From Takakia lepidozioides (Eukaryota; Plantae; Bryophyta), in the NCBI GenBank assembly GCA_030704615.1, contig CM060734.1:33294001-33358000 (forward strand): a stretch of DNA of 64,000 nucleotides, in the 5' to 3' direction. The translations under genes were made by a program, and so were the position numbers. Below the pieces are notes generated by a model. It ran no database searches and had not been told where the DNA came from. It saw only the letters and a list, made by a program, of their open reading frames with translations. This document shows positions 26,190 through 56,340 of this stretch, piece by piece (the first letter of the stretch is position 1; every line of letters starts with the position of its first letter).

Positions 26190-26290
26190 TTTGATGTTGT
26201 GTCATGGAACGCGATGATCGCAAGATATGCAGGGGCGTGGGATGGAGGCTTTGCAGACCTTCCTACTCTTGAGCAAATGATGCAGGAAGG
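26190..26290 (+). pseudogene. PPR fragment inside the CACTA element
   Basis: DVVSWNAMIARYA...EQMMQEG, a PPR P-motif remnant. Confidence 0.65.
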
Positions 26291-27432: not shown

Positions 27433-27445
27433 ACCTTCCCCGGTG

Positions 27446-27446
<1 letters not shown>

Positions 27447-27486
<40 letters not shown>
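27447..27486. repeat. (CT)n microsatellite
   Basis: About 19 CT/TC units. Confidence 0.95.
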
Positions 27487-27488
<2 letters not shown>

Positions 27489-28069: not shown

Positions 28070-28473
28070 ATAACCAGATGTCATTCTGAACATCCCCTAA
28101 TTCTAGACATATATGCCAATGTCATGGGAGTGTTCAACACTATGGCTAAACGAGATGTGGTGTTGTGGAGTGCGATGCTTGCAGGGTATGCACAGCAGGG
28201 GTGCGGGATGGAGGCTTTGGATACCTATGAGCCAATGATGGGGGAAGGGGTGAAGCTCGACCACATCATTTTAGTGTGTGTTTGCAGTGCGTGTGCAAGC
28301 TTGGGAGCCCTGGAAAAGGGCAAAGAGGTGCATGGTTGCATCACCAAAGCTGGAATTGTACCATATGTGATTCTGAACAATACCTCGTGGACATGTATGC
28401 CAAATGTGGGAGCATTGAGGATGCGGAGGGAGCCTTCAACACTATGGCTGAACGAGATCGTGTGATAAGTTGA
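28070..28473 (+). pseudogene. Frameshifted PLS-PPR fragment inside the CACTA element
   Basis: VFNTMAKRDVVLWSAMLAGYAQQGCGMEALDTYEPMMGEGVKLDHIILVCVCSACASLGALEKGKEVH / LVDMYAKCGSIEDAEGAFNTMAERD. Confidence 0.88.
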
Positions 28474-31400
28474 GTTGGTTGTTTCCTAGAACAAATATAG
28501 GCTGTCATTGTCAGCTGCTTGCAGCAAGGTAAGGATTTATGCATGATTTGTGTAGAGGCATGGATAGGTGAAGGAGCAGGGATAGAGTGTGGGTCCAGAT
28601 TCATGTAAGAAGGCCAGATTTCAAGCTCCAGATTACCTATGATTCCATGTGTTGAAGGATAGCACAATTGATAAATCAGGCACTGGTAACGAAGACACCT
28701 TCTTCAATAGCACAGCGGCTACAAGTGGGTAGATGGTCTACTAGAAACAGCGGCAGCAGCACAATTGATAGAACAAGACACTACTAATGAAGGTACCTTC
28801 TTCAACATATTCCACCTTGTTTTCCCCTGCTATCAGAGTCGTCCCTATATTTTCATGTTGAATTCTGCAAGTTAGCTCCGCGTTGGTGGATCTCTGGTGG
28901 TTTTGGAATGATTTTGACATGTTATTGCCAATGTGGTCGACAAGAAAGTATTGAAAAAACAGATAACAGAGACGAGAAGAAGCTCTGTTCCAAAGAATAC
29001 GTTTCCGACCCCAGTCAATGGTGGAACAATCGAGGCAAAAAAGTGAATGCTTGTTGGAAGTAGACGCAAGTCAGCGAGTATGGTAAGTAGGGTTGGGGTG
29101 TTTGCTGGAACAATTCTAGGCTGTCATTGTCAGCTACTAGGAGCAAGGCAATGATATATACATGATTTGTGCAGAGGCATGGATAGCTGAAGGAGCAGGG
29201 ATAGAGTGCATGGGTCCAGATTCATCCAAGAGGGCCGGATTTCAATCTCCAGATTACCTATGATTCCTTGTGGAAGGATAGCTACAAGAAACCTGCATAG
29301 ATAGATGATCAATTGGTTGGTCTTGAGCTGAAGAGCACGACCCCTGCAGGGATGTCTCTCCATCTGTAGATCTTTTAGGAAGTGGAAGGCTAGGGCCCAG
29401 CTTTCTTATGACATTGTTAGCTGATTTTCAGTTCTTCTCCTTACCTCGGTGCCTTTCTGTTTCCAAGTTATGGCAGTAGTTTCTGGCTGCAGTCTCTTTT
29501 CCTCCTAGACTCTTTAGCTCTATGCAGACCCCCTTCTTTGCTTGCCTTCCTTCTTACTACTCTTTCTTGTCTTGGTATGCGAAGCTGTGTCTTCCTCTTT
29601 CAGCCTCTATGACACTCTATCCAGAGGTTATTTTTCCTCTTTGTATCCAAGGACATTTTATGTCCATTACCTATAATGTTCTGGAGGCCACTGTCCCCAC
29701 TGTCCCCACTGTCCCTCTTTGTTAACAAAAATAAAAATAATAGAAAAAGACAACAATGGCTTCCATTCTATTTTCCTAGAAACCTAATGAGAATTTAAAT
29801 CAATTAATAATCTAAATATTATAATTGTATGATTTAATTTAGTAAATTAAAATATTATTAAAAAACCTCTTTAGTCATGAAGTTATATACTCATGACTAC
29901 ATCATGGCAACGTGGCATTATATGATACGATATTCTTTCCCACGTGTGGGTCATATATGTTGTCCATGTGGACACGTGTCACATCCGGAGTGCTACATAT
30001 GTCTCTCTGACGCCTCTCCAATGGAGTTATACTTTGTAGACGTAGTCATATAGTTAGTCATATAGTTGTGACTACATCCTCTCTACAGCATGACTCTAGG
30101 TGCCACGCACGCAGTCACGTCTATGACTTGCAAAACGCAGTCCTAAAGACTAGTCGCTATGACAGGGCTTTTTTCACTGCAGAGTGATATAGTCATGAAC
30201 GCATATAGGACTGAAAAAATAGTCATATGTGCAGTCATAAAAACGCTCATCTGTTGTAGTGCAACACTTCTACCTTTCCCTTGGTAGAGGATTCTATGCT
30301 GTACTATTCTCCTCCACCTCCGACGCTGACAAAGCCCTGCGGCTCAACACTCAGCAATCTGCAGCCAAAGTTTTCATATTCCCCTGGACCCAAGACTGGG
30401 GTCATAAAAAAGGAATTCTCTGGAGTCCTTGGGTGATTGCCATTCCATTCCTGCCTCCAACCTACCTGACGTCGCTCCCTAAGATCGGTGCCAGCTTTGG
30501 CACATACATTGGAGCCATCAATGTCTATGAGCCAGTGCAAGACCAGATTCTCGGTGTGGACAATGACGCGGTGCACTTCGACTACAACAAAGACAACGAG
30601 GTCCCCAAGATGGTGGTGCTCATGCCTGAAATGGCCACTCTAGGATCATCTATCAATTTCCCAATTCTAGATGACTCATATATTGTGGTAGCAATACGGG
30701 AGGAGAAGCTTTCCATTATCTGTTTCACTTGCAATGGTGAGGGACATGTCAAGGCGGCTGCCCCAAAACCAAGCTGAAAACAAAGCAACGATATCAGCAA
30801 GGGGGCTTTGACTCCTCTGAGCCAGCTAGTGTTTACCCAAATATGGCTCTGCAATAGTAGAGCCCAAAGCATATGGAAATGGAGCACACAGACATCCCCA
30901 ACTTTGGTTCAAACCAGGGCCAAGCCTCCAAAAGGAGAAAGCGATCTGCTGGAGCCCTCACAACATGGAACCACCCACAACGCCCTCAGCCTTCTTCCCA
31001 GTTCGGATCATGGAAGCGTGGGCCTCATTTCCCTTCACAGAGGAGGAACTACTTCTGCTGGACAGTGCAAGCCCAGCTATTTCGTTCTTGGAACTACACT
31101 CGTTCAAAAAAAAAGGCATTGACTGGTTGGGCACCAGGCTCGGGCTTAGCACGGGAGAAAGTGGCAATCTGCATCACACCCCTCGTTTTCACATTCCAGG
31201 ACGACTACACTAATTTTTGTTTCCCAAGTGTCAAGGAGGGGCTCCGTTCAGCCTGGGTGGACGAGGAGATCACCAAGCAGTATGGGCTAGGTAAGGAAAA
31301 AGAAATCACCCTGGCTCTGGCCCAGGGGTTGCTCAAGGATTTCTTCCCCAAACTCAACCTCTCTCTGTCCAATATGAAGCATATTGGCATCATGATAGAA

Positions 31401-32723
31401 AATAGTGTCACACATCATGACCTAGCTTTTATCCATGTTTTGCCCCTCTTCTGCAGTAGAGACTTGGACACCACTGGAAACCACAATGCTTGGATTTGGG
31501 TGGAGAAGGCTTAATTGTCTTGCAGAGTTAAAGACCCCACAGAATGGGTACGAAGCAAGCTCATTTTTGAGGAGGGGCTTGATCTAGTGGAAGAAATATT
31601 CAAGATGGAAAAAGACAAGACCATTGCTTCCCAGCATGAGCCAAATCACCACAGAGAGCTGGTGCTGCACGACATCAACAATCCGAACTCGGCATCAAAC
31701 ATGCTGCCAGAAGATTCTGCTGCCGTACCTGAGCACTCAGTTACTTTCTTGCTGCCGGAGGAGACTGTCGAGTCGCCACCAGCGGTAAGCATGTTCATGA
31801 ATGCTTGCTCTCCCCCTTACTCCCCTCTCTTCTTTTTCACTTCCCATGAGTCTAAGTGCAAGAGAGTGTGGACTCTCATGTTGGCTATCCCTCTTCTCAA
31901 CAAAAAATCCTACCTGGTTGGGGAGATGACTGCAACTCCCCATCCTCCCCCTCTGAGATGCTTGCTCTCTCATCTGCCCTCTCCTGCACTCTGTCTACGG
32001 AAAATTTAGCTGTGCTTAGGGATGGTGGGGATCATTTCACCCTCCTAGGCAGCAAAAACAAAAAGAAGAAAGCCACAACGGTTTACATATGGAAACTTCC
32101 CTCCCTTTTTGCGAGCCCAATGGGTTTTAAATGGGTTGACACCTTGCCCCCCTGGGACAAGCGCACTCGGTACCATTTTAACCCCTGTTGGCCATCAAAT
32201 CGTGTCTGCACCACGGGCCACTCACACTTTCATCCATAAATATTTCTCTCCACAGCTGGAATGTAAGAGGACTGGGGTCTGACCACTCTGCCCGAAAAAG
32301 GGCAAGGGTCAGAACCTGGGCCTCGGGATCATTCTGTAATTCTTTTCATTCAAGAGCATAAGTTGGATTAGGGCAAGATAGACTCCCTGGGCCGCTCAAT
32401 CTGGCCTGCAGCCTCACCTTTCTGGAACCCAACTGTAGTGGAATCGAGGGGGGGAACTGCCTTGCTGGTCGCTCCTTCCCTGGCTCAATCAATCCAATCA
32501 TCAGCTATCTGGCTCCAAGGTCGTGTGCAGTTCCTTTCAATTTGCTTAGGCCAATCCTTGGGCAGTGTGGGCCTTCTCAACATCTACGCTTCAAATGATG
32601 AAGAGACAAGAGTGGGGCTCTGAACCCTCACCAAAGACAAGCTCCTACAACATACACATATCCAGCACTGGCTACTTGGAGGGGACTTCAACATGGTGGA
32701 AGATGAATCCGATCGCCTGGGCC

Positions 32724-34900
32724 TGGCGATTGGGACTCCAGTTGTGTGGGACGTGTCTTTTGTTCGCACGCATGAAACTGTGGATTCAGCATCCCCGAGA
32801 AACCCAGGATGTCATTCCATCACAGAAGATAGTGATTATCAATGTCAAAGCACTTAAAGCAATGATATTCCGTCCAATGGTGAGACTGAAGGGGATTTGC
32901 CTGCAGGTCTGGGGAGAGATTGTTGGAGAAACTTGCAGTGTCTTCTTCTTAGGGAGGACGGAAACGCCCTGTTCGAAGGCCGAATTCAGGCATGCATTCC
33001 TAACGAGATCATTCTGAATGACAAATTCGGAGAGGACGATGTTGGGGTTCTGGTCACCAGAACAATCTCTGGAGAGTCCGGTTCACTGATGTCGATTGTG
33101 GATGAAGTGAGGTCAGTGAGCAGCAAACCTTGCTGCAAGCTTTAGTGCTGTCAGTATTTTAATTGGAGAAAAACCTTGGCAATTCGTACTGCATTTTGCG
33201 GTTCGTCATTCGATGAGAGAAGAGAACTTGGATTGAATGTTTCAAAACGACTTCACATTATAGATGGGTCATCGCGCATGTGGTATGTTACGATAGAAGG
33301 TGTTGATGTTTGTGAGAAAGCATGGTGGATAATACACGGAATTGGAAGGTCAACGTACATGGAGTACAAAAAGCTCAGTAAAGAGGGTTGTTTGTCATCT
33401 TTCCACGGAAATCATGGCGTCAAGCGGCCGCGACCAGGGACACTCCAGGCAGAGGGGAACATTATGTTCATTATCAATGCCAATACTGACCTTATGCCTC
33501 ACAAAACACGTTGCATTGGAGAGGGACGTCGGGATACTTTGAGAATTTTGCCACCCGAAATGAACTGTAAGAGAATTCGAGAGGAGTCCAACGAGGTGAC
33601 TTTTATTCGTTGTCCCCTTTCGTTTTTCAAAATACCGTGGATGATTTTATTCTTTTTGATGCCATCATGTTTTCTTGTTCTTCCACTTTGTAGAACCTCC
33701 ACTGCCCAGTGGACGTTGACATTGTTGGGGAGTTGGGGTGCAGACAAACAGACTGCTCGGTTTGAAAGGAGTCTCGCAGCCAGCTATAAGCAGTATACGG
33801 AATCGAATATTTCCTAACGTGGAGGTTCGGAAAACATGAAGCACCTTTGCTAAGTGCACAGAATGCGAGATGTTCAAGAAGTCGATTAAGAGGAGTTCCG
33901 AACAGATCGCACATAAGCGGGCGCTTGATTTGCACTTGAGGCATCCAGAGTCATGCAGAAGGCTGTACCATAGCTGGAGGAATGAGTCCGTTATGGTTCC
34001 GGAGGAGTTCCTATATATTATTCATGATAAGATGGATCATAGGAAAACGGCTATTCCGAGGCTACAGACGACGAACAAGATGGTCTCGGGATTGGGTCAG
34101 TTGCTTGTCTCATTGACAGGAATGGTTACGCACGGACACGGAGATGAAGCGTACGCTCAATTTTCCCTTGAGTTCTGGAAAGACAATTCAAACTTCACAA
34201 TTGGGTCACTGGCTCGGTGCCTGCGCCAACTGGAAAAGTCGACATGCCGGGAATCTAGGAACATTTTCGACACTGAAGTTCAAAATGATTTTTTTGAAAC
34301 GCTCATGAGAGGTAAATCGAGATGTTTGGAGGCTCTGAAGCCCTGCAGGCCGCACGATAAACGTGGTGCTCGACCACTTCCTAGACGACTTTATTTGCAG
34401 ATGGACAACTCCTCCAAGGACAATAAGAACAGATGGATGCTTGCTTTCCTATCCCTCCTCACTGCCAAAGATGTCTTTGAAGAGATCCAGCTTGGTTTTC
34501 TCATGGTCGGACACACCCATGAGGATATTGACTGATTCTTTAGCTATCTCTCGAAGAAGCTAAAGGAACGCAACACCTACATTCTTCCGGATTTGATGAG
34601 GTCATTCATGATCTTCCAAGATATGCAACTCATTCCTCAACCGACTTCAAGAAGTTTGTTAAGGGTTTGTATTCATGATGGAAATGAGGCTTTGGTCGGG
34701 ATCTCAAAAATGCACGTCTTTCGATTTTTTAAGGATGCGGATGGCTGGCCCGTTATGAAGTACAAGAAGTCAGCTACTGATTTGGAGTGGCTTCCTACAA
34801 ACTCCAGCGTTAAGATGTGGAAGTCCAATCCTGATGGGACTCCAAATCTCCCTGAAGGAGACCCAGATGTCGTTCCAAGAAGACCGATATGGGGAGTCGG
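32724..34900 (+). pseudogene. Sola1/DUF7869-like DDD transposase, copy 1 (truncated at both ends)
   Basis: Motifs IIHDKMDHRK, LYLQMDNSSKDNKN and FLMVGHTHEDID. It is collinear with copy 2 (50455-53900) but has an internal deletion (GSLMSIV|DEVRSVSSKPCC) and stops. It is joined to the LINE at the 5' end and cut at 34900 by the terminus of the outer MULE. Confidence 0.85.
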
Positions 34901-35291
34901 CAGCGTAGCTACGACGTGAGCCCAGCCCCGTGAGCTTGGGAGCTGAGCTCATGTTGTAGCTGCAAAGCGTGAGCTGAGCTCACGCTTCAGGGAAGCGTGA
35001 GCGGCACAAATCTGCTGGAGAAGCAGGTCCTATTACCGTGGACAAAACAAAGGGGGCCACCATGCACCATGTCTGCAATGCCTGCACAAAAAGAAGAATA
35101 TGAAAATATGGCAGATTTGAGCACAGAATGATTGACAGACTTTATTTCAATTCACAGATAGACGCTTACAATAAATGGCATGTGCATTTGCCTTAGTTCC
35201 GTGAACGAAATGTATGTGTTTGTCCTAAATGCAAAGTCTTCACACGGTAACCTGGAAATCAGCATGGGAAGCGGGCATGGCTCGTATGTGT

Positions 35292-37389
35292 TCAAAGAGA
35301 ATTTAGCGGAGCCCTACGTGAGGTGTCCCGCTGCAGAAGGGTGATGACTTCTCCGTAGCCTAGTGTGGCTTGGTGAATGAATTGGTCTCTCTTATCGTCG
35401 CAGCACATAATAACAAGGTATATGTAATATTGATGCTTGCAGGGGACCCACTTCCCTCTCATGCCGAGAGCGCCCTCACGCATCGTTACAAAATCCGGAC
35501 AAGTGCACGCAGGGAAATTCCCCACGGTAACCTGATATTCTTTGCCATGAAGAACTGAGCCAATAGACAGCACTGTGTAAATCTGTCCATACCCCGGGGC
35601 AGGGACTTCGGTGATACGAGTCACCCGAGCCTGCAAAATTCTAGCCGATTCCATCTTGCATTCGTGATCTGCACCCGAAGCGACACGGCGCACTGTTTTT
35701 CCATCTTTTTTTGTTGGGTGGTAGTCGGCACCGGGTGGAGGCATTGCCGGAGCATGTGGCACATCTATGCCGACAGTGCATGAGGGCACCACCCGGGACC
35801 GTGCAAGACAGAACCCTCCCTCCTCCAGCATGCTTATCTCGGTTGATGACAGCGACGTCCCAAGTTTCACAGGCCAAATTGCGAGGGGAGGGGGTTTCAT
35901 TATCACCGAAGGACAAACTGTTCCCTTGACGCATTGTGCCATATCGTCTGGGCAGAACTAGAACTTGTGGTCCTTTGACTCCCCACTATGATAAGGTCGG
36001 AACAACCCTGTGAATGTTGGAGCTGGAGTCCCCCTAAAGCCTTTGCATATTTTTTATTTGCATTTCTTGAAAGAGGGGGTCTGAATTGCCATGCAAGCCA
36101 CTCTAGATCCTGGTGGGGTGCGTTCTATATGCCACTCACTATCAATGCAATTAGATTCATGCACCATGGCCACCACCTCCTCTAATGGGATTCCTGCTGC
36201 TGTGCTTGCATGATCTGCACCTGCTCCACTGGAGGAGGACCCACCTGGGAAGGGGCGGGCACACGACTTAGTCTGCACTGGAGACACCTTTGGTACAGAG
36301 AAATTGACCCTATCCGGCCGATGGGAATCTCCATCCGACCCTGGAGGAGTGTTCAATTTCCTTTTGCATGATCCAAATCTTTCCTCGCCTTCCAAATGGG
36401 GGAGCCTGGATTGCAAAGGGGAGCCTTCAGTGCACCTGTTCAGAGCTATGGCCATCTTCGATGGGTCTCCGGACTTACTCGCAGCCCTTAGCATCAACAA
36501 AGTTGTATCAGGGCCCTTGCCTCCACCCCGTCCCATCAGAAAATTGCGGTACCTGGTTTGTTGTGTAAGTGCCCGCACCATGTCATCAGCAGTGGCCACA
36601 TACAAGTCAGGTCCTGCTTTGGTAGACTGCTGCATCCAGGCGATGTGAACAGTCTCCGCCAAATTACAGGATGGCATGTCAGCCAAGTCCTCCAAGGATA
36701 TGTCCTGCAGGAGGCATTGCATGGAAATGTGAGGAACGAAAAGAAATAGAAGAGGTTGTGCAAGTGACAATCCAACAACCCCAAATGAACAGGCACGATG
36801 CAAAGTGAAATTTGTGTTTCTAGGATTGAAGAGGCTTACCGTCGTCATGAAAGCTCCCCACTGTCTGTACTTGAAGTGCCAGAAAACCAACCAGTCCTCC
36901 AACTCCTTCAGGTGGATACCAGTAGCAGCACCAGAGGAGAACCACCAAGCCCGGATTGCTTGGTAAGTGCTCTCAGCTTCTCCCATTGAGGTGGCATTTT
37001 TGTACTTGAGGCAGAGCCTTCTGTGCTCCAACTGAAGGTTAGGGCGAATGCAGTGCTTTGTATGACGTGCCAGAGATTGACTCCAATGGAAGAGGCATGT
37101 GCGCTCCCTATTTTGCATTGGGACCTTAGGATCCCCCGAACCAAACACGCGCCGTACTGCATTGAAATTTGCCTGTGCACTATCAGCCATGAAGCCCGCA
37201 AAATTTGTATTCTGTATTCCATTGCGCTGCATGACGGCCAGGAGCGAATTCCACATGAGCATCTGGGATTCAGTGTCCTCCGACTGCATATCACAAATTG
37301 CTATGGAGAGCACACGCTGGTACACTGGATCGTACACATGGCACGCCATGGTTGTCCAACCCTTCACCCGTTTGCAGTGATCAAACATT
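35292..37389 (-). pseudogene. Outer MULE transposase, 3' half (DDE core and SWIM finger)
   Basis: MFDHCKRVKGWTTMACH...GFMADSAQAN...RTCLFHW (MULE D, D and CxxH), intron 36705-36839, SCNLAETVH (E), and SWIM CTCPDF...PCKH. A frameshift and a stop lie near 35960-36060. Confidence 0.9.
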
Positions 37390-37565
37390 CAACGACGCAA
37401 TGGCGTGAGCGTTGCACGTGAGCGCGCGAGCGTACGCTCACGCAGGAGTGACGTGGCGTGAGCGTACGCTCACGCCAGCTGACGTGGCGTGAGCGTCATG
37501 TCAGCATGCTGATGTGGCGGTAAATGATGACATGGCACTGTCCGTCAACTGCCACGTCAGCATTA
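37390..37565. repeat. Left TIR and subterminal repeats (GCGTGAGC, TGACGTGGC)
   Basis: Multiple CGTGAGCG/CGCTCACG and TGACGTGGC copies, mirrored at the right end. Confidence 0.85.
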
Positions 37566-38012
37566 ACATGCGCCGCCTATAACCGTGGATGGTCCTATGA
37601 CCGTGGAATTAATGCAGGGAATCTTGCCTAAATAGAATCAAGACGAGCGTTGAGGCCTACAATTACAGCATCCAACATTGTACAATTACAAATGCTTGTT
37701 TCACTTTTACAATTACGAAGACGACAAAATATCCTCACAAAGTGTGCGCCATAAAGGCTGCCACGAGAAGACTTCCTCCCTCCTCAAATAACAATAAGAG
37801 TTATGATCATCTTCAAAAGATGATTGTAGTGCATAGCGACAGCAAGACATGTAGACTTCGAACGGTGCAATGACAAATGTGCACTACCTAAAAGTTGTCA
37901 CTCAGAGCTCACTCCGTATAATTGGAGGCCATATCATTGCACAGCCGACGAATTGATGTGAATTACACATTTCAAATCATGGTCATCCACATACCACATT
38001 ACATAGTTCATG

Positions 38013-41000
38013 CTACCCATGTGTTGTATCCCGCTGCAAAAGAGTATCGACCTCGTTGAAACTCATAGTGGCCTGGTGAATGAAGTTGTCACGTTTGGGA
38101 TCGCAAACCATCCTCCTCAAAAATATGAAATACAAAGGTTTGCAGGGTATGAATTTACCTCTCTTGCCCAAACTGGTTGATAGCATATTCACAAAATCAG
38201 GACATGTGCAATTGGGGAAATTGGAAACCGTGATGTCGTAGGTCCTGTCATGAACAGCAGATGTGGAAGTGATGATTGTGAATACCCGACCATATCCTGG
38301 ATCGGGTACTTCCGTGGTGCTTCCGACACGAGCTTGGAGCATTCTTGCGGACTCCACTTTGCCAAAGTGTTCAGCGGTTGGAGGGAAACGCCGAACGAGC
38401 TTTCCATCTCGTTTGGTTGGCCACAAGTCAGGATTTGCCGGGGGGACCCGGGAGGACGCAGAAGTAGTAGCACATGCATGGAGTTGGGGTTGTCTCGCAA
38501 GGGAAAAACCTGCCTCCTCCAGCATTTCAATCTCCTGAAAGCTGAGATGTGTTCCCACCTTCACGGGCCAAACGGTTGGAGGAGATGGCTTCATCACTAC
38601 GGAAGGACGCACAGTTCCATGTACACATCTGGCACAATCATCTGCGCAGAACCAGAACTTGTGGTTCTTGCTTCTGGTTGACCGTATGGACGCATCAAGC
38701 CCGTGAAAGTTGGAGCAGGAGTTCGGGCACCACCTCTGGATATAGATGAAGTGCACTTCTCGAAATTAGTTGCCCTGATCGCTGTACATTTCACACGAGA
38801 CCCGACACTTGTGCGTTCTATGTGCCAAACGTGGTCGGGGCATGCGGACTCAAGCACATCAAGGGGGTTGTTTCTCTCCTGCACCATTTCAGTGGCACGG
38901 TTTGATGCTGGAGCTTGCCGTCGTGTTGGAGGTTCCTCCACAATGGAGGTTCCGGACATGGAGCTGTCATGCAGGGGAACACGAGGCTTCGAGAAGTTAT
39001 CACGGTCTGCCCTGTGGGAATCTGAATCCGAACCAGGTGGAGTGTTCAATTTCCTCTTACAGGAGCCGAATCTCTCCTCCCCTTCAAGATGTGGAACTCT
39101 AGAAACAAGTGGCGTTCCCTGGGCATACATGCTCACCGCCCGTGCTATCTTGATTGGATCCCCAGATCTGTTTGCAGCACGCAACATCAACTCCCATTTG
39201 TCCGGACCCTTGCCACCAACCCCACCTCGTAAGAAATCACGGTATCGGGTTTGTTGTTGCAAGGCACGTATCAAATCATCTGTTGTTGCCACATACAAAT
39301 CCCGACCTCGTTTCCCAGACTGCTGCAACCATGCATTGTGCACAGTTTCTGCCAAATTGCAAGATGGCATGTCCGCCATTTCCTCAATGGACATGTTCTG
39401 CAAAGAGGATAACCACACTTCAGAACAGTGCACAGGAAACAACATAAAGAAAGCAATGAGTCAAAAATATGGAAAGCAAATGTATGAATAAAGCATGAAA
39501 TAGAAGCCTCGTACCATTGTCATGGCTGCTCCCCACTGTCTATACCGGAAGTGCCAAAACGCCAGCCAATCTTCCAATGCTCTCATACTCTCAAGTGATG
39601 CAGCTCCAGAAGAGAACCACCAGGCACGAATTGTCTGGAACAAAGTGTCCGCCTCCTTCATTGTTCTAGCATCTTTGTACTCTTTGCACAATTTACGGTG
39701 CTGAGTCTGCATCTCTGGTTTGATGTCCGACTTTGTATGTTTTTCCAGAGATTGTGTCCAATGGAATAGACATGTACGCTCTCTTCCTGGCATAGGCACT
39801 TTTGGGTCGCCCGATCCGAAGACAACACGAATAGCATTGAAATTTGCTTGAGCACTATCCGCCATGAAACCTGCGAAATTTGGAGATGGCATCCCATGGC
39901 AGCCCATGACACGTATCAGGGAATTCCACATGAGCTTCTGGGATTCGGTATCCTCGGATTGCATGTCACAAACTGCAATTGTCATAACTCGTTGGTACAC
40001 TGGATCGTAGATATGACAAGCCATTGTCGTCCAATCCTTCACTCGTTTCACATAATCAAACATAAGAAAACAGTTCTGCAAGTCCCCAGTCTTCTGCATC
40101 CGCTTCACGAGGCTAACCCCACTGCCCTCCCCAACAGTCGACATTTTGAAAAGAAATACTTTGATGGCACCTTGACCTGGGAATACATTGTCCTGGATGT
40201 AATCGTACTTGCTCACTCGTTTCAATTCCAAAATATTGTCTATGTAGCCTCTGATCCCAGAGCCCATTCTCAATGCATTGATCTGATGCCGAATGTTAGG
40301 TGAACTTAAAGTGGAGAAATGATCCATGACCAGGTCCAATGCTGCACCGTCAAGTTTAGTCCCCACAGAATCTCCTTCACTCAAAATATGGCTTTCCAAG
40401 AAGGACTTGCTTGCGCCAAGAGCAATTGCAGATGTTGTTGCGGATGGGTTTCTCCCGAACTCCTGTTTGATCAACCTCGATACTGTCTCAACACTCTCCC
40501 TGTAATCCCCCTTCGAGACAGGATGGTTATGGAATCCAAAATGCACACAAGCTCTCGTCATTGTATTCAAACGGTGGACAACATAGTACATTCTTGCTCC
40601 GCAGAGCGCCAAACAGGATAGCACAAGTTTGCAGAATTTGCAGACGAAAGTGTTTGCCGGTGGAGGGGCAGTCCCAGGCTGAAATGGATTTTCCGCCAGA
40701 CCCTCCCATTCGCTTTGATTATGAACCCCAGAAGTGTCTGCAATTCAAATTATCACACCTAAGGTGTCCATTGCAAACTGTCCTCCTGAAAACAAGCTTG
40801 TCATCATTCTGAATATTGGATGTTTTTGTTCTGCACCACGGGTGCCCGTCGTGTTTCTTGTCCATTCCATGCATCATGATTGTTACACCTCCAACTCGCG
40901 GAGGAGGAGGCAGCTCGAATAGGATATCGCCATCAAAAGTCTCCGGCAAGAACTTCACAGGCACCTGCTTCAAAGATTCCCAATCAATTCCCCGCAACTC

Positions 41001-41518
41001 ACTTTTAAATCCAGCCATTCCTCCCATCGCCCGCAATTTTGGAATGACACTACAAATCTCTTCTTCATCAGCTTCTCCAATCACAGTAGGAAGGACTGGA
41101 TTTGGAATTTCACTTATGTCATCATCGGAAGAATCCGAAAGCTCAACGATTGGAGTGGAGGACGTCTGTTCTTTTTTCACCACCACCTCCCTCTTGTCTT
41201 CAACGACCGAAGCAGCAGTCCCGGGCGTCACATATGACCCAAGGGACTTTGCCGAGGCTCTCCAAGTACTCTGTATCGACCAGGACGCACTCTCCACTGG
41301 CTGATATGAGCCGTCTCATCACGGTTTTGGAAAGAATATTTCACCAACTTCCCTTTCAGATCGTAAACCTCTTTCTCCAAAAAGATGGAGCCATTCTGCA
41401 GCTGAAAACGGGTAGCCAAGACATGTTCCAGAACAATTGCAAATCCATTGTCAAGGACTTCCTGGGAGAACGGCACTGGTTTGTCGTCTGAGAAGAACTC
41501 CGCTTCAGAGGAAGCCAT
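38013..41518 (-). pseudogene. Inner MULE transposase: GCM-like Zn domain, DDE core and SWIM finger; full length with frameshifts
   Basis: ATG at 41518. DGHPWCRTKTSN...RRTVCNGHLRCDNLNC...CKFCK...C...CGARMY...ACVHFGFHNHPV is WRKY/GCM-type. The core has MFDYVKRV, FMADSAQAN and CLFHW, then intron 39398-39514, then NLAETVH. The SWIM finger is CTCPDF...PCKP (His replaced). Frameshifts lie near 41290, 40720 and 38700. Confidence 0.9.
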
Positions 41519-42750
41519 CTTCCTTCCTCGAGTATGTTTGTACCTTGCTATCGCAGATCTAGTGTAAATCGGTTTACTGCTGTCTCCAGAACACAGTTGA
41601 AGAATGAGCAGAGAATATGGCGGAGGAAGCTCAGATAACGACTGTGCATATTATGTTATTCTTTCCAGATATGCAGCCGTCCATTTTAATTACTTTTCTT
41701 GTGGGCCCAGTGGTCAGAGTATCCCTAGGGGCAGTGTCGGCAACTGTTAAACCGTTAATCAGAACCTCATAAATAAACCCAATAACAAAGCCGACTTCCT
41801 GGAAGCATGCCACAGGATCTGAGAATGGGATTGCAGATTAAGTAAATGTATCTATATACTACTACCAATGATCATGCGCACCTGGAAAGTTCCAAATGTG
41901 AAACGAATGTGGGGTTTGGCTAACAAGGATGACCGTGTATGATATTCCAAAATTTGTCATCAAACTCTCGTTCATTTATATTTATTTGTTTAAGACTGCG
42001 CATCAATTTCTGGGATTCGCTGTTATTTTTAAATATTGAACCCGTTCTAATAAAGAACACGCCGTTTTTTTTGGGCGGCACACGTCAGACATCCATAACT
42101 GAATACGAACAGCTGTACACCAATTGCTGGCATGTGCACTAATAAGGAAACGACTATGTGTAACGGTCACGCGGGAGGGAATCCGATGCTTCTAGAGACA
42201 CGCAAGAACGCAGGCAATCCCGCAAGAAATCGGGAGTCACTGCGTTTTTCTACTTTTCGCGCTTAGAGGGAGAGTGGTAGTCAAGCTGGAGAGGGTTCCT
42301 TCTAGAATACGAAAGAGCAGAAAGTCTCTTTATTTTACTTCCCTTAGAGAGAGACGCAGAGCAAGAGAGCAAATGACGAGGCGTCGTTTGTTGGAGAACA
42401 CAGGGCCAAGGCAGCAGGTGAACCGGTAGACTGATTCACAAGAGCAGACGGAGACTGAGGCAGCGGCTGCGACACAGTCGGCGATAAGAGTGCGCCAGCC
42501 TGTGGAGGCAGAGATGATTCGCAGGGACACTGAAGAAGGTGGAAGCACGCGGAACGCCGAACCTGGAGAAGGTCAAGAAACCCTTGCGCAGACAGAAACT
42601 CCAGCAGATGTGAGAGGGAAGAGGAAAGCTGCTGAAGGGGATCACATTTCAAAACCTAAGAAGGTGCCAGTAAGTTTTATCATATAGTCTGTCTGATTGC
42701 CTTTCAAGGAGTCCTTCCTCTTCCCTTTTTTAGCAGGAACTACTGAATTG

Positions 42751-43068
42751 CGAGCGTCGTTAACGCCATTCGATTCTCCTCATGAGATTTATATACCTAT
42801 GTGTTTGAAGAGAGAGTCTGCACTTACTATTCTCCCTAAACTACACTGAATGTCGTTGCCGCCAATCAGTTGCACATGTATGTCATTACACAACACCGAT
42901 CCGGCAGGTCGTTATCTTTTGTGATTGTCGTTAACGCCGTTCGCTATCGCTCTCGCTTTTGTTTTGAATACGGCAGTTCAGCTTTGCATGTGTAGATTGT
43001 GCTGAATTCTTTCACACCATTCATGGTGAGTTTCCTTGATAGAGAGTGATGGTCGTTACCGCCATTCA
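42751..43068. repeat. Four degenerate 22-bp palindromes in cargo-gene intron 1
   Basis: CGAGCGTCGTTAACGCCATTCG (42751), TGAATGTCGTTGCCGCCAATCA (42847), TGATTGTCGTTAACGCCGTTCG (42922), TGATGGTCGTTACCGCCATTCA (43047). Confidence 0.75.
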
Positions 43069-44939
43069 CTATTTGCAAATCACTCAGTCAGAACTGAATG
43101 GCATCATGCAGAAAATTGTGAGGTCGAAGCCTACAGGATCAGAGGGGAAAGGATCTGGAGATGGGGACGAGTCCGCAAAAAGCTCAGAGAATACAGATGA
43201 AGCAGATGAATCCGAAGTGCACTACCTTGACAAGGTGAAAGAACTCATGTCATTCCAGAAGGTAAACTCTCAGGAGGTTATAAGGGACATGCTCGTATCT
43301 GGAGGGCGTCTGGACATACCTCTGTGCCGGATGATATCAATGCCTGTTGTGCGTCCACCTCTTTCCCATGACATAACAAAATTGGAGAGTGATTTTGTGC
43401 ATGGATATAGACTTGGTGCACAAGTTTTTTATGTGTCACTGACGGATATAAATGGGAAAAGCACATTAGTGTCTCCAGAGATCAGTGATAACTGGGATGA
43501 GTGCTGGAAAGATGTCAATGAGGAGTTCGAGCTGGGCCTCATGATGGGAAAGAACACCCAGCAATTCTGCAACCACATGTTCTACGTCTGGGACGGCAAC
43601 CACCGATTGCTGGCATGGATGGGATACATTCAGAAACACCATTCGAAAGACAAAGACAAGCATGTTGCTGTGGAGGCAATGGTTTTGGATCCAGGAAACG
43701 ACATCGCTAGGCTTCTTACAGCTATGCACGACGTGAACAAGTAAGTCATCCAGGAGATTTCATTCCCTCTGTAGTGTCTTGTTAATCCTCAAAAAACAGT
43801 GTTAAGGAATGCAATGTTTCCAATGTTTTTGCAGATCGACAGAGAAATCGCATGTGACAACAAGCTTGGTTCACACACTATTCCGAATTCAGAGGATTGG
43901 TCTGATGAAGCTGGATGATTTTCGGACAGTACTACCACCCAATATCATCAAGAAGTGCGAAACAGGAAGAGCTGCAGGCACTTGGTATTCTTTGACACGA
44001 GAGGACGTTTCTGGAGTACATGTATGCGGTAAGCCCGAGTCTGTAATCTGTTTACTTTTCGAATACATGTTTGTAGTCCCTTCGGAGCTAATCACTACTT
44101 GAATGAATGCAGCAAGAACTGGCAGAGGCAGCTGAGAAGGGAAAATCCGAATATTACCGCACTACACCAGAAGAACTAAGGACATCAAAGGTGTGGAAGC
44201 TGCAATAAAGAAGGAGTTTGAAATGCGAAGAACCAAATTGAGTCAGCCTTCGGAAAGCAGCTTAGAATAGTAGATCCTGGACTTGGTCCTGAGTTCCTTC
44301 AGCAGATCAAAACACACTATGACAAGCATGTGCATCCGGAGATGCAGCAGGAGAAATTGCACCGGCTGGCCATATCGATGGTCGACCCACAAACAAAAAT
44401 AAGGTGGCTGGAGATATGGAACTCAGATCAAACAGTAAAGGACTTGAATCAGTTCCCAAAGAGCACCATACAGCCTGGCACAAAGGTGGAAGGAATCAGT
44501 GATTTGGTGTTTGATAACTGGCTCCACAAGGCTACATTTTGGAGTCAGGTGTGTATTCGAACATGCTGTTTCTTCTCTTCAAGTATGTGATGTGTATCTT
44601 TTTTGCAATTCTGACAAATATACTATTTGCAGCTCGAAAAGCGCGCCGTCATTGTGCTGGATCAGACTTTGAAGGACCTGAACATTGCGATTGTTTCCCC
44701 TCCCCAAATGTCATTGGAGGCATACATAAGGAAGTGGAGAGGTCTCACCTGGAGATACTGTTTTTTCCGGGAGTTCTCCAAAGATGGTAACATTTTACGG
44801 TCCAACGACTTTGACAGTCAGGTTGGAGGAGAGTGGGCCATGATGCGAGTTGTGTACAGGTGCAATGTCATACTTGAAACTCTACTGTTTTTTTGGGAAA
44901 AAATGTGGCTTCATATGGATTGCAATCTTAGATCCAGAT

Positions 44940-45641
44940 TGAATGTCGTTGACGACATTCACTTCTTTGTCTAAGTCATTCTTAAGCGAGTATATGAATT
45001 CACCTGGTTAGGATCTAAGGGTGCAATTATATTGTCCCTGATTAGAATTGATAATGTCCTTGAATGGCGTTGACGACATTCACATACGGAGTTGTTGAGA
45101 GGTCCTCAGAGTTATTTAATTTTTTATAATGTCCATAGAGGTTACAGTGAGGGTTCCTCACTTCATTTTGCTGAATGTCAATGCAGACATTCAGTTGTTC
45201 TGCATTGTTTTTGCCTCTTGCGATGAATGTGGAGGCTTGATAAGCTCTGTTTTAAGAAATCCAAAGTGAATGTCGTTGACGACTTTCACAGCTGTGTCTG
45301 TATTATTCAACAGCGACAAATTCAATTTACATGGATTGGGGAGCTAAGTAATTGGTTTCTTTTTTGTATTTTTGTGAATGGCGTTGACGCCATTCACATA
45401 CAGTGATGTTGTGAGGTCCTCAGTGATAGGTTCGTTATGAATGTGCATTGAGTTTGCCTTGAGGGTTCTTTACTCAATTTTTTGATTTCCATCCTGTGAT
45501 TTTGCTTCATTTAAGTAATAATTTGGCTTCATTAGTGAATGTCGTTGACGACATTCACTTCTATAATTTGCATTCATCTGGATTAGGGTGTATTTACAGT
45601 GTCATTGAATGGAATGTTCTGAATGGCGTTGACGACATTCA
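44940..45641. repeat. Seven 22-bp palindromes (TGAATGTCGT-TG-ACGACATTCA) in cargo-gene intron 5
   Basis: Copies start at 44940, 45061, 45172 (degenerate centre), 45267, 45375, 45536 and 45620, within ~250-320-bp higher-order duplications. Confidence 0.92.
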
Positions 45642-48554
45642 TATCTGGAGCAGTAGTGTGGTCCTGAAAGGTCCTTGGAGCAGTTCTCACAGCCATTTCA
45701 ATCTATGTTTTATTCTTTCTGTTCTACTTGCATCTTACTCACTGAGCGCTTTTGTGGGTTGGGATTTATCTCCTTTTTTCAGGTACACGAAATATGTGCT
45801 TATGGAAGGAAATCACCTGAGCGGAATTCCCGACTATCTTGACATGTGGTCGGACCCTGCAAACGATCCAACCATGTATACTGCAGGGATATTGAAGGAC
45901 TGGAGTCCTTCTCACTTCAGAGACTGTGGGTGGTACCTTGACTGCCCACCTGAGCACACGACCTTTCAAGAACATCATATGAAATACTTGAACAATAACG
46001 CTGAGATGCTGGCGCCTTTGACTGACGAAGAGTATCAACGAAACATAGCAACATTGGCTGCCAAGGAGCCTGATGCTCAGGGAACGCTGCAGAAGGGAAA
46101 GAAGGCGGGCCGCAAACCAAAAGACAAGGCTGTTGATGTCATAGCCATCTCACCAGCAAAGCCAAAGGACAAAGACAAGTCCAAAGAGAAGGAAAAAGAC
46201 AAGGGGAAGGAGAATGAAAAGGAAATGGAGAGTGGGCAGGACTTTACTGCTGGAAGATATACCCGCACTCTTCAGTGCGTGTTCGATGCCAAGCCACACC
46301 CTTCCCGTTCTGATTCAGCAGGAGAGATGAAAATTGTTAATGAGGGTTGGCTTTCGATGATGCAGAGTCGAAAGAGAGGATACACTGGGGTGCGATCCCC
46401 TACCTGGGACAATATAATCTCATTCCTCAATCTGGTGAGAATTCCAGTTTCTTTCCTTTTTCTCTGAAAGTTTCGTTGGCAGTATTTCAGTCTCGTTCTT
46501 TGAAAACAATCTTGCCATCGTTCTTATAAAAAACATGTCTGTTGCAGGTGAGCACAGGTCCCACCTTCGTGTGCGGTGTGCAGAAAACTTATGCGGCCGA
46601 CATTGTCATTCTCGACATCCCGGATGGCCAGGCTGTGCCAGAAGTTCTTCCAAAGGGCAAGACGCCAGGCTGGAACAAATTCGAGGACAACTACTGGAGT
46701 TGGGTGTTCGGGTTCTGTAACAATTTCCTCTCTGATGCAGGGACACTTCTGCTTTTTCAGTCATGTGACAATGATAGTCGTCGGGCATTGGCATCATACC
46801 TCAAGTCTTCAGGGTTTGAAGTTTTGCGCACATGGAATTGTGTGAACAGCCTATACCTTGTGAAAGGGGGTTTCCCTGGTCAGCTGGTATGCCGTCTCCC
46901 TTCTGCTTGTGCTTTGATCATGAGTTTCAATTTTCTCTGCAGGTCCACTCTAGTAGAATGTTTTATGATCGACACCGATCATCACCGATTCATGATTTTT
47001 TTGTGTCAGAGTTCTGAATAGCCGATGTACACACTTCCACTATAGATTGTGTTTACCACACTAACCTGCTATCTTTGCCAGACGAGGATGTTCGAGGCGA
47101 TCTGCCTGCGGAGGATTCGCACATCAAAGACACCATCCTCCATCCGCAGCTTTGAGATTTCTGACCAGGGTTGTTTCGTCAACCCCCCCTATGAGCCCCA
47201 TGTCGATGACATTTTGTACAACTTCATGCAGTCCAGTCAGACTCTGAAGAGACCAGATGACACTCCCTGGAGAGGTGCAAATGAAAAGTCACCAGCATTC
47301 ATGCAAATACTGCTGGAGTCATGCAGCCACCGCTCTGCACGGGTGGTCGATCTTTCTGTGTCCACAGGTTCGTTTTTTCCCTTCCGAATTTGTTTCCTTT
47401 CAACAGTTTCATCTGCGTAAATCCCCCCCTCCAAACTGTTCATGTTATCCTATCTGGTGCAGGAGCAACTTACCACGCATGCAAGGCAGGCGGAAGAAGC
47501 CTTTTTGGCATGGAGGGTGATTCTGACCTCTACAACACCGTGCTCCTCCCCCTTTTGTCTGGCTCCACTTCAGGCACACAGACTGATCGGATTCAAATTC
47601 GAAATGATGACGATCCCGAAGATAAGCAGGTCGACAACGACTTTTCATGTGAGTAAGTGCTAAACCCTCTTTGGGAGTCATACTCAATTTCTCGATAACA
47701 TCAAAGTTACAGTACTAACTTTTTCAGGCTGTCTTTCAGGAAAGGCAGCGGTGGATCTTCAGGAGATACAGTCATTTCTGGCGAGTCTGTTTTCGACAGC
47801 CCCCTTTCCAATTTTCTGCTTCCTGTTTATGCCGAAGCAATGGCACTTCACGCGGCCGAGTCCCTATCCCCTGACTTTTTAGTGGCCAGCCGTAGGTGTA
47901 TCCAGCGTGGATCCGGTGTTCTAAAATACTTAGACTTAGATGCAGAGGAAGAGGGGATACATTGTACTGACTCTGAGTCAGACTGAACTGTATTCTTTTA
48001 ATATTCATTTTCATATTATCTGGAAAACGTTGAATCCATTTCCTCCACCGTAGTTGTTCCTTTAGAACAAATAATAATCACAGAATCAACTTTCGTTTAA
48101 ATTGCTATATGTATGAATCCATCTCACAAACCTCCCTGACTCTTCTCATATCCATTGTGCATTCATCTACACTGTATTCATGCGTGCTCCATTCATGAAA
48201 GCTTCCTTTGTACAACATCCATTGTACATTCATCCTCTGTACTCTTTAATCCACACCACAAACCTTCCACACTCATTTCATATACGTTGTGCATTCGTCA
48301 AAAGATTTGGTCATGCATCTTCCTGTCATGAATTTTTGTCATTGCTCAACATCCACTATACATTCATCCATTTTACTCTTATCCATCCGTCATTCATCCA
48401 TCTACATACATTTTTCACACTCATCCATCTGTTTATCATCCAACTGTACATTCATCCATCCTTTATTCAATGCCTTTTATTATGTCGTCCAGCTTGTTTA
48501 CTCGGTAAAGGGTGCCAATCCGTGGGAATACACTCCACTTCTTTCTGGGCGCGT

Positions 48555-48683
48555 GGTGACGCGGCCTTCACGTGTGATGACGTGGACTGAGCCCCGTGAC
48601 GTGGCATTTGCGCAAGGTGACATGGCGTGAGCGCAGTTGCGCTCACGCGCTCACGTGACCAGGCTCACGCCGAGGCATCCCTG
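48555..48683. repeat. Right TIR and subterminal repeats of the inner MULE
   Basis: TGACGTGG and GCTCACGC repeats, ending GCTCACGCCGAGGCATCCCTG immediately before the TSD. Confidence 0.85.
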
Positions 48684-50159
48684 TCAAACATTAACCAACA
48701 TTTTGCCAAATCTCCTCCAGGTTGCATTCGGCGGACAATGCTCACACCACTGCCTTCGCCCACTGTGGACATCTTGAACAAATACACCTTGGACGAGCCC
48801 TAGCTAGGGAAGATATTGTTTTGAATGAATTCATAGCGACTCCTCCGTCTGAGGTCCATAATGTTGTCCATGAATCCAGCAGTGTCTGTGCCCATTCTGA
48901 GTGCATTCACCTGGTTTCGAATATTAGGAGAGCTCAACACGGAGAAATGGTCCATCACTGCATCAAGCGAATCTGCATCCAGCATTGGTTGTGTCGCATC
49001 CCCCTTCACCCAGTACGTGTTTTTCCAGGAATGCCTTGCTAGCTGCAAGCGCTATAGCAGAAGGTGTTGCACAAGGGGCATTGTGGAACTCCTGCCTCAG
49101 CAGATTTCTAGTGATGTCCACCATATCCCTGCAACTTCCTTTGGACACAGGATGCTCGTGTGTACCCATATGAATGCAGGCACGAGTCATTGTCTTGCAT
49201 CGGTGTGCCACCTGGTACATACGAGCGTGATACACAAAAACACAGGACGAGGAAAGTTTGTAAAATCTGCACACAAAAGTATTGGTCTTGGGAGGAGCAA
49301 GCCCTGGGGTGAAAGGATTCAGGGGCACACCTTCCCACTCACTTTCATTTGGTTTAGCGCTATTTCTCAGGCGAGGGCAAGAAATATTCACGCACTTGCA
49401 ATGCCCAACGCAAACCGACCTTCGAAATTTCAATCCAATGTCGTTGTGGATGTTCGACGTTTTTGTCCTGCACCAAGGGTGTCCTTCATGTTTCTTGTCC
49501 ATGCCCTGCAGAAGCCCAGCTAGTCCACTGGAAGACGTGGGAGGGTTGAGCTCAAACAAGATGTCCCCATCAAACTCTGCTGGCACGTATTGAGCCCGCT
49601 ACACACGAAGGGACTCCCAATCAACAAAACGCAGCTCGCTCTTGCACCCAGGCACCCCTGCGAGGGCTTTCAATTTTGGAATGACACTCGTTATCTCCTG
49701 CAATTCGTCATCATCCAAGAATGGAGTATGCACTAGCGGAGGAATCTCAGAAACATCCTCCGAGGACGAGTCTGAAATAGTCACGAATGTAGTGGATGTG
49801 CTCACCTCTTGTTTCACATGAACTGTGCCATTCTGCTGCATGACCGATGCTGCAGTGCCAGGGGTAACTACTGATCCTGTTGATTGTCTTCTCTCTTTTC
49901 CAAGGACCCGGTATGTGCCTGGAAGGACTCTCTACTTCCTTCCACACTCGCCAACCAATGGTTTCTCCAACTGCCCAGAATCCAAATTCCCATCCTCGTC
50001 ATACACCTCTTTTTGAACAAGCAAAGAACCCAATTCCAGCGGGAACACTGTAACCAGCTCATCCTCATGAACAACTGCAAACCCATCGCCATCTGCAGTG
50101 GCAGTCAGTGGAAGACTACCTGCATTGGAATGAAATCGAGCGAGTCTAACCATATTCAT
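48684..50159 (-). pseudogene. Outer MULE transposase, 5' half (GCM-like domain up to the first catalytic Asp)
   Basis: Collinear with the inner transposase N-terminus: EGHPWCRTKTSNI...RRSVCVGHCKCVNISC...RACIHMGTHEHPV...RMQPGGDLAKCWLMFD. Contains stops and frameshifts. Confidence 0.9.
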
Positions 50160-54619: not shown

Positions 54620-56340
54620 TTGGCAATTTAGGATTTAGGATTGACATACATTTTTTATACCTTGCTTTTTATGTTAGCATTATCCCTAACCCTTACCCTT
54701 TTCTGCAAATGGTCCATGAACTATTCATACCATAACCATAGCCATAACCATAACCATTATGGTTATTGAAATGTCTTCTCCCTTCACATATGCGCTAGCT
54801 TTTTCTTTTGTTTTGGATTGACATGCATTTAGGCATTGTTACAATTTGCTTTTTATGTTACATCTTAATACCAGGTTCCAAAGACGAGTCTTTCATTTAA
54901 ATACTTGTCCATAATATTAGGTTTTTATTTTTATTTTGTTTACTAGTACCCTACTAACAACACTAAGTTCTAGCGATTGGAGTCTTCCATAAGTGTTTGT
55001 CAATTTTGTAACTTAAACAAAAACCCTAAACCCCTATCCTAAACCTTTACTATAAAACCTTAAACATTTACCCTTAACCCAATACCCCAGAACCCTTTCC
55101 TTTCCCTTTGCAAATGAGAATCAACTATCCATATCATAACCATAACCATTTTGGTTATCCAAATCTCTTCAATGTATCCAAATTTCCATTTTGTACCCTA
55201 CTAACACACACTAAGTTGTAGCGAGTGCGAGTCTTCTGACATGTATGCTCACAATTTCTACCTTCAACCCAAACCCTAAACCCTCGTCGAAAACCCTAAG
55301 CAAAACCTTACGCCATTGTTACGTCTAAACCCTTCTCCTTCCCCTGCAAATGGGAATGAAGTATCCATACCATAACCATAACTATTATGGTTATTCAAAT
55401 CTCTTCGCCCTTCACTTTGCGCAAGGTTTTGCCTTTGGTTTGGATTGACATGCACTTACCTTTTTTTTATCGAACTTTGCTTTCTATGTATCTCAGGTTC
55501 CAAGGACGAGTCTTTCATTTAAATACTTGTTCGATGCAATGACTACACTTCCATAATATTAGGTTCTTCATTTTTATTTTGCTTACTACCTTACTAACAA
55601 CACTAAGTTGTAGCAAGTGCGAGTCTTCCGACATGTATGCTCACCATTTCTGCCTTCAACCCAAACCCTAAACCCTCGTGGGGAACCCTAAACAAAACAC
55701 TACGCCATTGTTACGTCTAAACCCTTACCCTTCCTCTGCAAACCCCCTGCATGGGAATGAAGTATCTTTACCATAACCATATGTATCTTAATACCAGGTT
55801 CCAAGGACGAATCCTCAATCTAAATACTTCTCTGGCCCAATGACTCTTCCATAATATTTGTTTCTCCATTTTTATTTTTATTTTTTATCCTACTAATACA
55901 CACCAAGTTCTAGCGACTGTGAGTCTTCCATATTTGTTTGTCCATTTGTACCTTAAACCCAAACCGAAAACCCTACCTTTACCATCACCCCTAAACCATC
56001 AATCTTACCATAATCCAATAACTTTAGTGTACTACCCTAGTTACACTCCAAACCTTATTGTACTACCATGTTATCTATTTTCAATGTTTTATGCTTTTTT
56101 AATATATATTTTTGTTGGATAATGTATGATAAAATGATTACAGGGATATCAAATTCCTCAACCATTTCTTAATTCTACCGAGTGTGAGTCCATCATATTT
56201 GTTTGTCCTTTTGTACCCTAAATCCAAACCCTAAACCCTTACCTTTACTGTAAACCCAAACCTTATTACACTTCTTTTTAGTTACACCCCAAACCTTATT
56301 GTACCATCCTAGTACCTCTTCCGAATGTTTCATGCTATTC
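54620..56340. repeat. Complex degenerate tandem repeat with telomere-like AAACCCT motifs
   Basis: Recurring blocks CTACTAACAACACTAAGTT (~54951, 55198, 55592, 55890), CAGGTTCCAA.GACGA (~54872, 55494, 55795), CCATAACCATAACC and AAACCCTAAACCC. Confidence 0.8.

Follow-up and report, generated by a model that had tools for sequence, protein, structure and literature searches.

Selectively conserved palindromes in the introns of a ParB-like transposon cargo gene of Takakia lepidozioides: candidate binding sites for the encoded protein

The VANDAL elements of Arabidopsis are MULE-type elements with an accessory gene, and their family-specific motifs lie in introns and other non-coding parts, are amplified by tandem repeats, and turn over between families (PMC5735166). 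The accessory protein VANC acts from such tandem-repeat-built intron motifs, and the authors themselves raise the puzzle of a transposon factor acting over kilobases from short sites (PMC5735166). ParB-parS, Noc, KorB, and VirB have a ParB/Srx fold with a GxxRxxA motif (PMC11229316, PMC10245682) and repeated palindromes beside or within the protein's own locus; VirB, a ParB-family anti-silencer, spreads from a palindrome (PMC10245682). Element-encoded proteins acting on sites of their own family are also represented by Spm TnpA and the AtMu1 transposase, where the binders are transposases or derivatives, and transposases can bind and de-silence their own elements (10.64898/2026.08.24.746577). 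The AtMu1 transposase binds terminal repeats, and the words "ParB" and "palindrom" are absent from that text (10.64898/2026.08.24.746577). A phage-type pairing of ParB with a methylase was described by Iyer et al., whose eukaryotic fusion joins a ParB-type HTH to a group-2 methylase in chlorophytes and chytrids (PMC4738411). Fungal DNA transposons with TET/JBP dioxygenases carry a DNA-modifying type of enzyme with a proposed anti-silencing function (PMC12730594).

We analyzed a 64-kb stretch of Takakia lepidozioides DNA (64,000 nucleotides; the window) containing a MULE-like transposon with a ParB-like cargo gene. As in VANDALs, the non-coding sequence of the element holds family-specific motifs in tandem repeats. 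The motif of VANC21 is a short 9-mer, YAGTATTAY (PMC5735166), whereas the element in the window has 24-bp palindromes with a CpG core, and its protein differs from VANC in its predicted ParB/Srx fold and methyltransferase-like domain. No VANC-related Pfam family matched the exons or 87 homologues, an indirect comparison with VANC. By analogy, the element would work like VANC/VANDAL, from unrelated parts. Unlike ParB systems, the gene is eukaryotic and intron-containing, reads DGNHR for GERR, and gives a faint match to ENxQRE; its sites are 24 bp long, compared with 16 bp for parS. The fungal TET/JBP transposons differ in enzyme class, and no cognate palindrome arrays are reported in the available part of that work (PMC12730594). 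No prior description of such a system was found in the open-access literature.

The element is 11.3 kb long and sits in the transposase-like gene of a related, outer element (Table 1). Its 9-bp flanking repeats at 37381 and 48684 fall within the 8 to 11 bp range of MULE target-site duplications (PMC6446971). The ends are short, imperfect inverted sequences composed of GCGTGAGC repeats, which by their inferred role are likely transposase sites; the left set includes a 24-bp CG-N2-CG palindrome at 37454. The transposase-like gene gave a weak match to the IS256 family (E 0.15), and no Pfam MULE family matched it. A SWIM match (E 0.27) fell on the paralogous exon of the outer element, whose transposase-like protein is 55 to 70% identical to the inner one. 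The transposase-like and cargo genes are arranged head-to-head, likewise in six distinct related loci (L027, L044, L046, L047, L057/58, and L066/70/71). In the window, the terminal repeats are common to the inner and outer elements and the intron motif is present only in the cargo gene. In run X1, 26,164 contig pieces, a depth that does not equal copy number, aligned to the cargo gene at 80 to 100% likeness, thereby indicating a multi-copy family. The observed/expected CpG ratio was 0.61 to 0.94 over most parts of the element and 0.36 to 0.48 in the flanking host DNA and a LINE, which fits less methylation of the element but also its youth. The outer element could be followed at 34905-35005, 35292-37388, and 48693-50000, with one end carrying GCGTGAGC repeats and its gene split by the inner insertion; a second end was not found in the window.

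Table 1. Coordinates of the inner element and its parts in the window
Feature	Position	Strand	Remarks
MULE-like DNA transposon, 11.3 kb	37390..48683	.	9-bp direct repeat; host gene resumes on both sides
Left target-site duplication, 9 bp, TCAAACATT	37381..37389	+	
Right target-site duplication, 9 bp, TCAAACATT	48684..48692	+	
Left subterminal GCGTGAGC repeats	37403..37495	.	
Right subterminal GCGTGAGC repeats, inverted	48625..48670	.	
Transposase-like gene, MULE-like	38013..41521	-	Weak matches
Cargo gene	42373..47990	+	ParB/Srx-like N-terminus, helical middle, N6/N4-methyltransferase-like C-terminus
Predicted intron 1, four palindromes	42670..43111	+	Splice signals and stops in all six frames
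Exon 2, predicted ParB/sulfiredoxin-fold domain with DGNHRxxA	43112..43740	+	Model, structure matches, conservation
Intron 5, seven palindromes, three tandem units	44860..45782	+	GT..AG; skipped by one contig
Exons 7-8, methyltransferase-like core	46551..47367	+	DIPD at motif IV position, then VVDLSVSTG at motif I

The sequence-only reading had noted about 11 palindromes confined to the introns of this gene. A scan of the window for the 22-mer, allowing at most 5 mismatches with the two central bases free, returned exactly 11, with 4 in intron 1 (starts at 42751, 42847, 42922, and 43047) and 7 in intron 5 (44940, 45061, 45172, 45267, 45375, 45536, and 45620). No site was found elsewhere in the 64 kb at this threshold. 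The expectation from 30 order-3 Markov shuffles was 0.37 sites on average (maximum, 2), and a stricter scan (at most 3 mismatches) found 7 sites against 0.00 expected. All sites lie inside the two intron stretches of Table 1, both with GT..AG ends in the gene model, and intron 5 is skipped at GT..AG by one contig of run X8, which was guessed to be an RNA run. The repeat unit is better read as a 24-bp sequence, GTGAATGTCG-TTGA-CGACATTCAC, in which the half-site of the window's family, TGAATGKCG, is arranged around a 4-bp spacer. Intron 5 consists of three tandem units with periods of 327 and 269 bp; the sequence-only reading had put the tandem duplications at about 250 to 320 bp. Its CpG dinucleotides are concentrated in the motifs (12 in 154 motif bases, compared with 6 in the other 769). 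The designation "parS-like" is an analogy: the sites are 24 bp long and have a CpG core, and neither ParA nor a role in partition is apparent. A reading of the repeats as coding was rejected for the window and most arrays, which have stops in all frames; an open frame is kept in three short arrays (L001, L032 downstream, and L036). In addition, a strong acceptor at 42736 would lead the exon 1 frame into a TAA inside the first palindrome (42670-42770), a possible poison exon.

The palindromes are selectively conserved islands in the cargo gene introns. Between the tandem units of intron 5, the motifs were identical at 42/44, 44/44, and 42/44 positions (95 to 100%) and the flanks at 58 to 70% (P ≤ 5e-5 for the difference). 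Between family copies, none of the 40 listed substitutions and none of the 8 listed indels fell inside the seven 22-mers, which make up 16.7% of the intron (P = 7e-4); this variant list leaves 26 further, weaker sites beyond the 40, and cross-mapping between units is possible. Thus, the greater divergence claimed for the sequence between copies was borne out across tandem units, and the motif was better conserved than its intron flanks across family copies as well. Among the differences between family copies, transitions were not in excess (44 of 122 places in run X1, and 13 of 50 in a second comparison; window 42200-48100), which contrasts with the CG-to-TG/CA decay in many related loci.

Next, we compared related loci. 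The best 80 of 128 metagenome stretches encoding a relative of the cargo protein represent 58 distinct loci. None of the 58 carried the window's own motif as an array, and the exact motif gave no match in metagenome and viral contigs. Instead, relatives have palindrome families of their own, such as TGAGGTGCC in L004 (17 copies), GGTATTGGCG in L019, CAACTTTCG in L032, and AAGCATTCG in L036. A family was defined as at least three copies of a 10-4-10 palindrome, and the loci scored were those whose sequence extends 1 kb or more upstream of the ParB-like exon. An own 24-bp family was present just upstream of this exon in 13 of 26 loci, compared with 1 of 60 distant control tiles and none of 33 tiles over exons 2 to 4 (P = 1.4e-7 for upstream enrichment). 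The 10-4-10 geometry was fixed after these loci had been searched for the window's motif, and odd spacers gave 1/26. The other 13 loci yielded no de novo family in the upstream tile, and seven of them had at least two loose matches to a relative's motif, a count made without a control. Conservation of arms relative to flanks in the relatives' tiles was partly circular and was set aside. Downstream arrays recur in differing introns, after exon 4 in L004 and before exon 7 in L032. Among 20 family rows, CG or its decay products occupied arm positions 9-10 in 14, positions 10-11 in 2, and neither in 4; the CG-N4-CG core is thus missing from 6 rows. For one clade, nothing in the intron except the palindrome can be aligned (L003 compared with L005 and with L013), and the arms stay while the spacer varies. 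These results indicate that the palindrome system is real, selected, and widespread. Because homologues carry different palindromes at the same position, the motif does not belong to an unrelated MITE, a possibility that the sequence-only reading had itself named. A check for co-variation of motif and cargo protein was also among its proposals; motif type tracks the clades in a protein tree of 57 rows, from which two short ones were omitted, but descent alone would give that. Motif and protein have a common descent, which means that the tree does not demonstrate co-evolution; nor do loci from the same clade count as independent. Two interleaved families, usually one with and one without CG-N4-CG, lie upstream of the ParB-like exon in L019, L038, L043, L046, L047, and L060.

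The cargo gene is broken in the window copy, with an in-frame stop near 42427 and 1-bp indels, relative to other copies, near 44005, 44189, and 44241. Structure prediction covered exon 2. Folded with 87 sequences, it gave a model with a pLDDT of 89.5; the single-sequence fold (pLDDT, 35.7) was unusable. In VIA-align, all 12 rows were ParB/Srx-type or related nucleotide-binding proteins, with KorB at the top (Z 7.6; rmsd 2.6; 90 aligned), followed by PadC (7.4) and ParB-N (6.5). Foldseek placed Noc and ParB in its top rows (best E 7e-3) and gave no match at E ≤ 0.001, and the Atlas score for the assignment was 0.95. Sulfiredoxin was also among the structural matches. Because these individually middling scores agree, exon 2 is assigned a ParB/Srx nucleotide-binding fold on the basis of the model, which supports the earlier description of the cargo as ParB-like; the whole is thus a predicted ParB/Srx-fold protein, and membership in the CTP-clamp ParB class is putative. 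No ParB match above noise was found at the sequence level in Pfam, NCBIfam, or PHROGs, and no significant sequence match in PDB. In the 87-row alignment A1, the G, R, and A of GxxRxxA (motif definition in PMC11229316) were present in 87/87, 86/87, and 82/87 rows, although the word search may favor the motif; the invariant DGNH of exon 2 fits it. The helix end that may correspond to EN(I/L)QRE reads MHD(I/V)NK (N in 74/87, with 10 gaps), a faint match. No sequence-specific DNA-binding domain was located in the protein, of which exon 2 alone was folded.

By alignment, the methyltransferase-like core would fit a permuted order, with the motif IV position before that of motif I, as in beta-class N4/N6 methyltransferases. 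The Pfam N6_N4_Mtase family matched the motif I region only, with E values of 5e-5 to 9e-6 in Riccia homologues, below the curated cutoff, and the Atlas score was 0.83 to 0.89. The catalytic motif [DNSH]PP[YFW] (PMC4738411) is absent, and the homologous position reads DIPD, DVPE, DLPT, DYPE, DIPE, or DVPR, with DVPF in P0200. Among the beta-class N4/N6 DNA methyltransferases named for comparison, which include rotifer N4CMT, MpDN4MT1 of Marchantia has TSPPY (10.1101/2021.02.12.428880), compared with D-x-P-x in the cargo homologues (DIPD, DVPE, DYPE, DLPT, and DVPF). Judged by sequence, the cargo protein thus lacks the catalytic motif of a canonical methylase, and because of this the domain may be catalytically altered or serve binding only. 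A profile search gave 1,286 representatives of the cargo protein at E ≤ 0.001; the named homologues are from Riccia sorocarpa and two Adiantum species. Prokaryotic matches amount to a motif of 16 to 18 residues in L081 and L083. No longer exon 2 homologue was found among 710 candidates and no exon 7 homologue among 3. A supposed bacterial relative, L082, comes from a cyanobacterial bin, but with its GT-AG introns and the exon pattern seen in plants it is probably mis-binned plant DNA and was rejected as bacterial; its positions 1-4691 hold a seemingly intact intron-containing homologue. It was fetched after the upstream test and has four upstream copies of its own palindrome.

Our preferred reading, to which we assign a probability of about 50%, is that the palindromes are sites for a dimer of the cargo protein and that each family thereby recognizes, and likely keeps active, its own copies. 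It follows from the different palindromes that relatives carry at the same place, which make the sites likely docking sites marking the element's own copies. The parts of this reading differ in strength. Judged by their arrangement and conservation, the palindromes are very probably protein-binding sites, and the cargo protein is the favored binder, with some reserve; an anti-silencing or self-marking role, rather than feedback repression only, is argued by analogy and falls a little short of an even chance. Two subunits would read the two half-sites around a loosely specified 4-bp spacer, and in helically phased arrays the bound dimers would all lie along the same side of the DNA. Loading at the sites and action on neighboring element DNA would be the part of the ParB-type nucleotide domain, and the methyltransferase-like domain, as an enzyme or a binding module, would engage CpG-containing DNA and offset host 5mC silencing. 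The cargo protein would then act on the element that encodes it, much as VANC works from motifs in introns and VirB spreads from a palindrome. A bolder version is doubtful: a ParB-parS-like device in liverwort, fern, and other plant transposons, in which a nucleotide-gated dimer loads on phased CpG-core intron palindromes, slides along the element, and, by means of its divergent amino-methyltransferase domain, sets or shields a mark other than 5mC, so that its family alone is protected from silencing, with protein and site drifting together into many orthogonal pairs.

A ParB-fold protein would give a concrete, testable answer to the kilobase-range action noted for VANC, by loading and sliding. 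Each family offers a readable candidate site, so that a protein-by-palindrome matrix is directly assayable. If true, a eukaryotic ParB-type clamp or a transposon-borne, CpG-aimed N4/N6 methylase would be a novelty in plant epigenetics and would supply orthogonal parts for epigenome editing. On the cautious reading, too, this is an apparently undescribed, widespread accessory system in transposons of non-flowering plants.

The palindromes might instead be internal sites for the transposase or another element protein, acting as enhancers or in de-silencing, with the introns serving just as non-coding room. The AtMu1 transposase binds and hypomethylates its own elements (10.64898/2026.08.24.746577), and several loci have two palindrome families, suggesting two binders. 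The DUF7869 genes of the window are also relevant here. Their 24-bp palindrome family, AACCTCCACTG-NN-CAGTGGAGGTT, occurs in non-coding sequence of two gene copies, at 33694, 50205, 50422, 51862, and 53975, and the two copies share the palindrome at 22/24 bases in an otherwise diverged intron. No ParB domain was detected in the DUF7869 gene, no open-access literature on DUF7869 was found, and its product is inferred to be a probable transposase. A conserved intron palindrome in such a gene means that such palindromes can occur in introns independently of a ParB domain, so that the pattern is not specific to ParB and the transposase stays a real rival. However, the repeat at the termini is a different one, which also occurs in the outer element, whose transposase-like protein is similar, and the intron motif was found neither at the termini nor in the transposase-like gene or the present parts of the outer element. 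The AtMu1 transposase binds at terminal repeats (10.64898/2026.08.24.746577). We consider internal transposase sites unlikely as the explanation.

Feedback alone is slightly less probable still. The cargo protein would merely repress or tune its own gene through a KorB-like operator array, with element silencing unaffected. In the window, the sites are confined to introns of the gene itself, with none at the promoter or the ends, and the plasmid repressor KorB gave the best match in structure. However, feedback leaves unexplained the methyltransferase-like fusion, which is kept from liverwort to fern homologues, and VANC sites, intronic too, act across the element (PMC5735166).

Hairpins of RNA or single-stranded DNA, with pre-mRNA pairing that affects splicing or yields small RNAs, are improbable. 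RNA folding of intron 5 gave a z of -5.98 against 20 shuffles, with copies pairing with each other, and symmetry is retained while the sequence changes between families. Such a strong fold would be expected of any such array. The Rfam match was weak (E 0.089; 25 bits, compared with 85 needed), and the conservation of sequence goes beyond mere pairing. Arm mismatches showed no wobble bias, with 72 G-U and 73 A-C; five little-decayed loci had 6 G-U, 9 A-C, and 39 other mismatches. A paired change that keeps symmetry had been claimed for the 45375 copy, but this change is not compensatory: at the T/G position each half varies on its own (left/right T/A in 4 copies, G/A in 2, G/C in 1, and T/C in 4), and the G on the left was passed on with the duplicated unit. 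The lack of G-U bias and of compensation argues for double-stranded protein sites rather than hairpins, and each palindrome is read as probably holding the half-sites that a dimeric protein would contact on the duplex. In eight regular arrays, the repeat lengths of 32, 51, 64, 75, 107, 116, 127, and 138 bp, or 3.05 to 13.14 turns, lie near whole helical turns (R 0.84; P = 0.0008, post hoc test); phasing was tested on these eight, and a pooled version was dropped as non-independent. The window's own spacings showed no phasing (R 0.32; P = 0.41).

CpG-containing palindromes are typical of dimeric factors, and this, together with the intronic position, would suit sites for host transcription factors collected by the element to drive its expression. 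We regard host-factor sites as slightly more improbable than hairpins, since from one protein clade to the next the sequence is replaced entirely and only its length and symmetry are kept, a pattern that suits a private, rapidly changing binder better than a conserved host factor. That the sites are neutral remnants of tandem duplication, or an unrelated MITE, is largely refuted by their selective conservation and their recurrence with unrelated sequences at a homologous position, although the arrays did grow by tandem duplication and unit number varies among copies.

Other repeats were also observed in the window. An orphan array at 18985-19815 follows a short ATG-led frame at about 18825 and contains about nine palindromes, GTGATGATCG-TCGA-CGATCATCAC, in 70- to 87-bp units of CG-N4-CG design. 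No ParB-like exon was found near it by tblastn, and it is possibly a deleted relative. Intron 7 of the cargo gene has a lone site (46962) similar to the orphan palindrome. A 31-bp tandem repeat, PPR gene fragments, and a LINE-like remnant with a zinc knuckle occupy 3767-4229, 23500-29700, and 30240-32900. Tandem units at 54700-56300 are degenerate and include ATAACCATA palindromes and runs resembling AAACCCTAAA; in L069, a ACCATGGTTA family is present in 14 copies upstream of the ParB-like exon.
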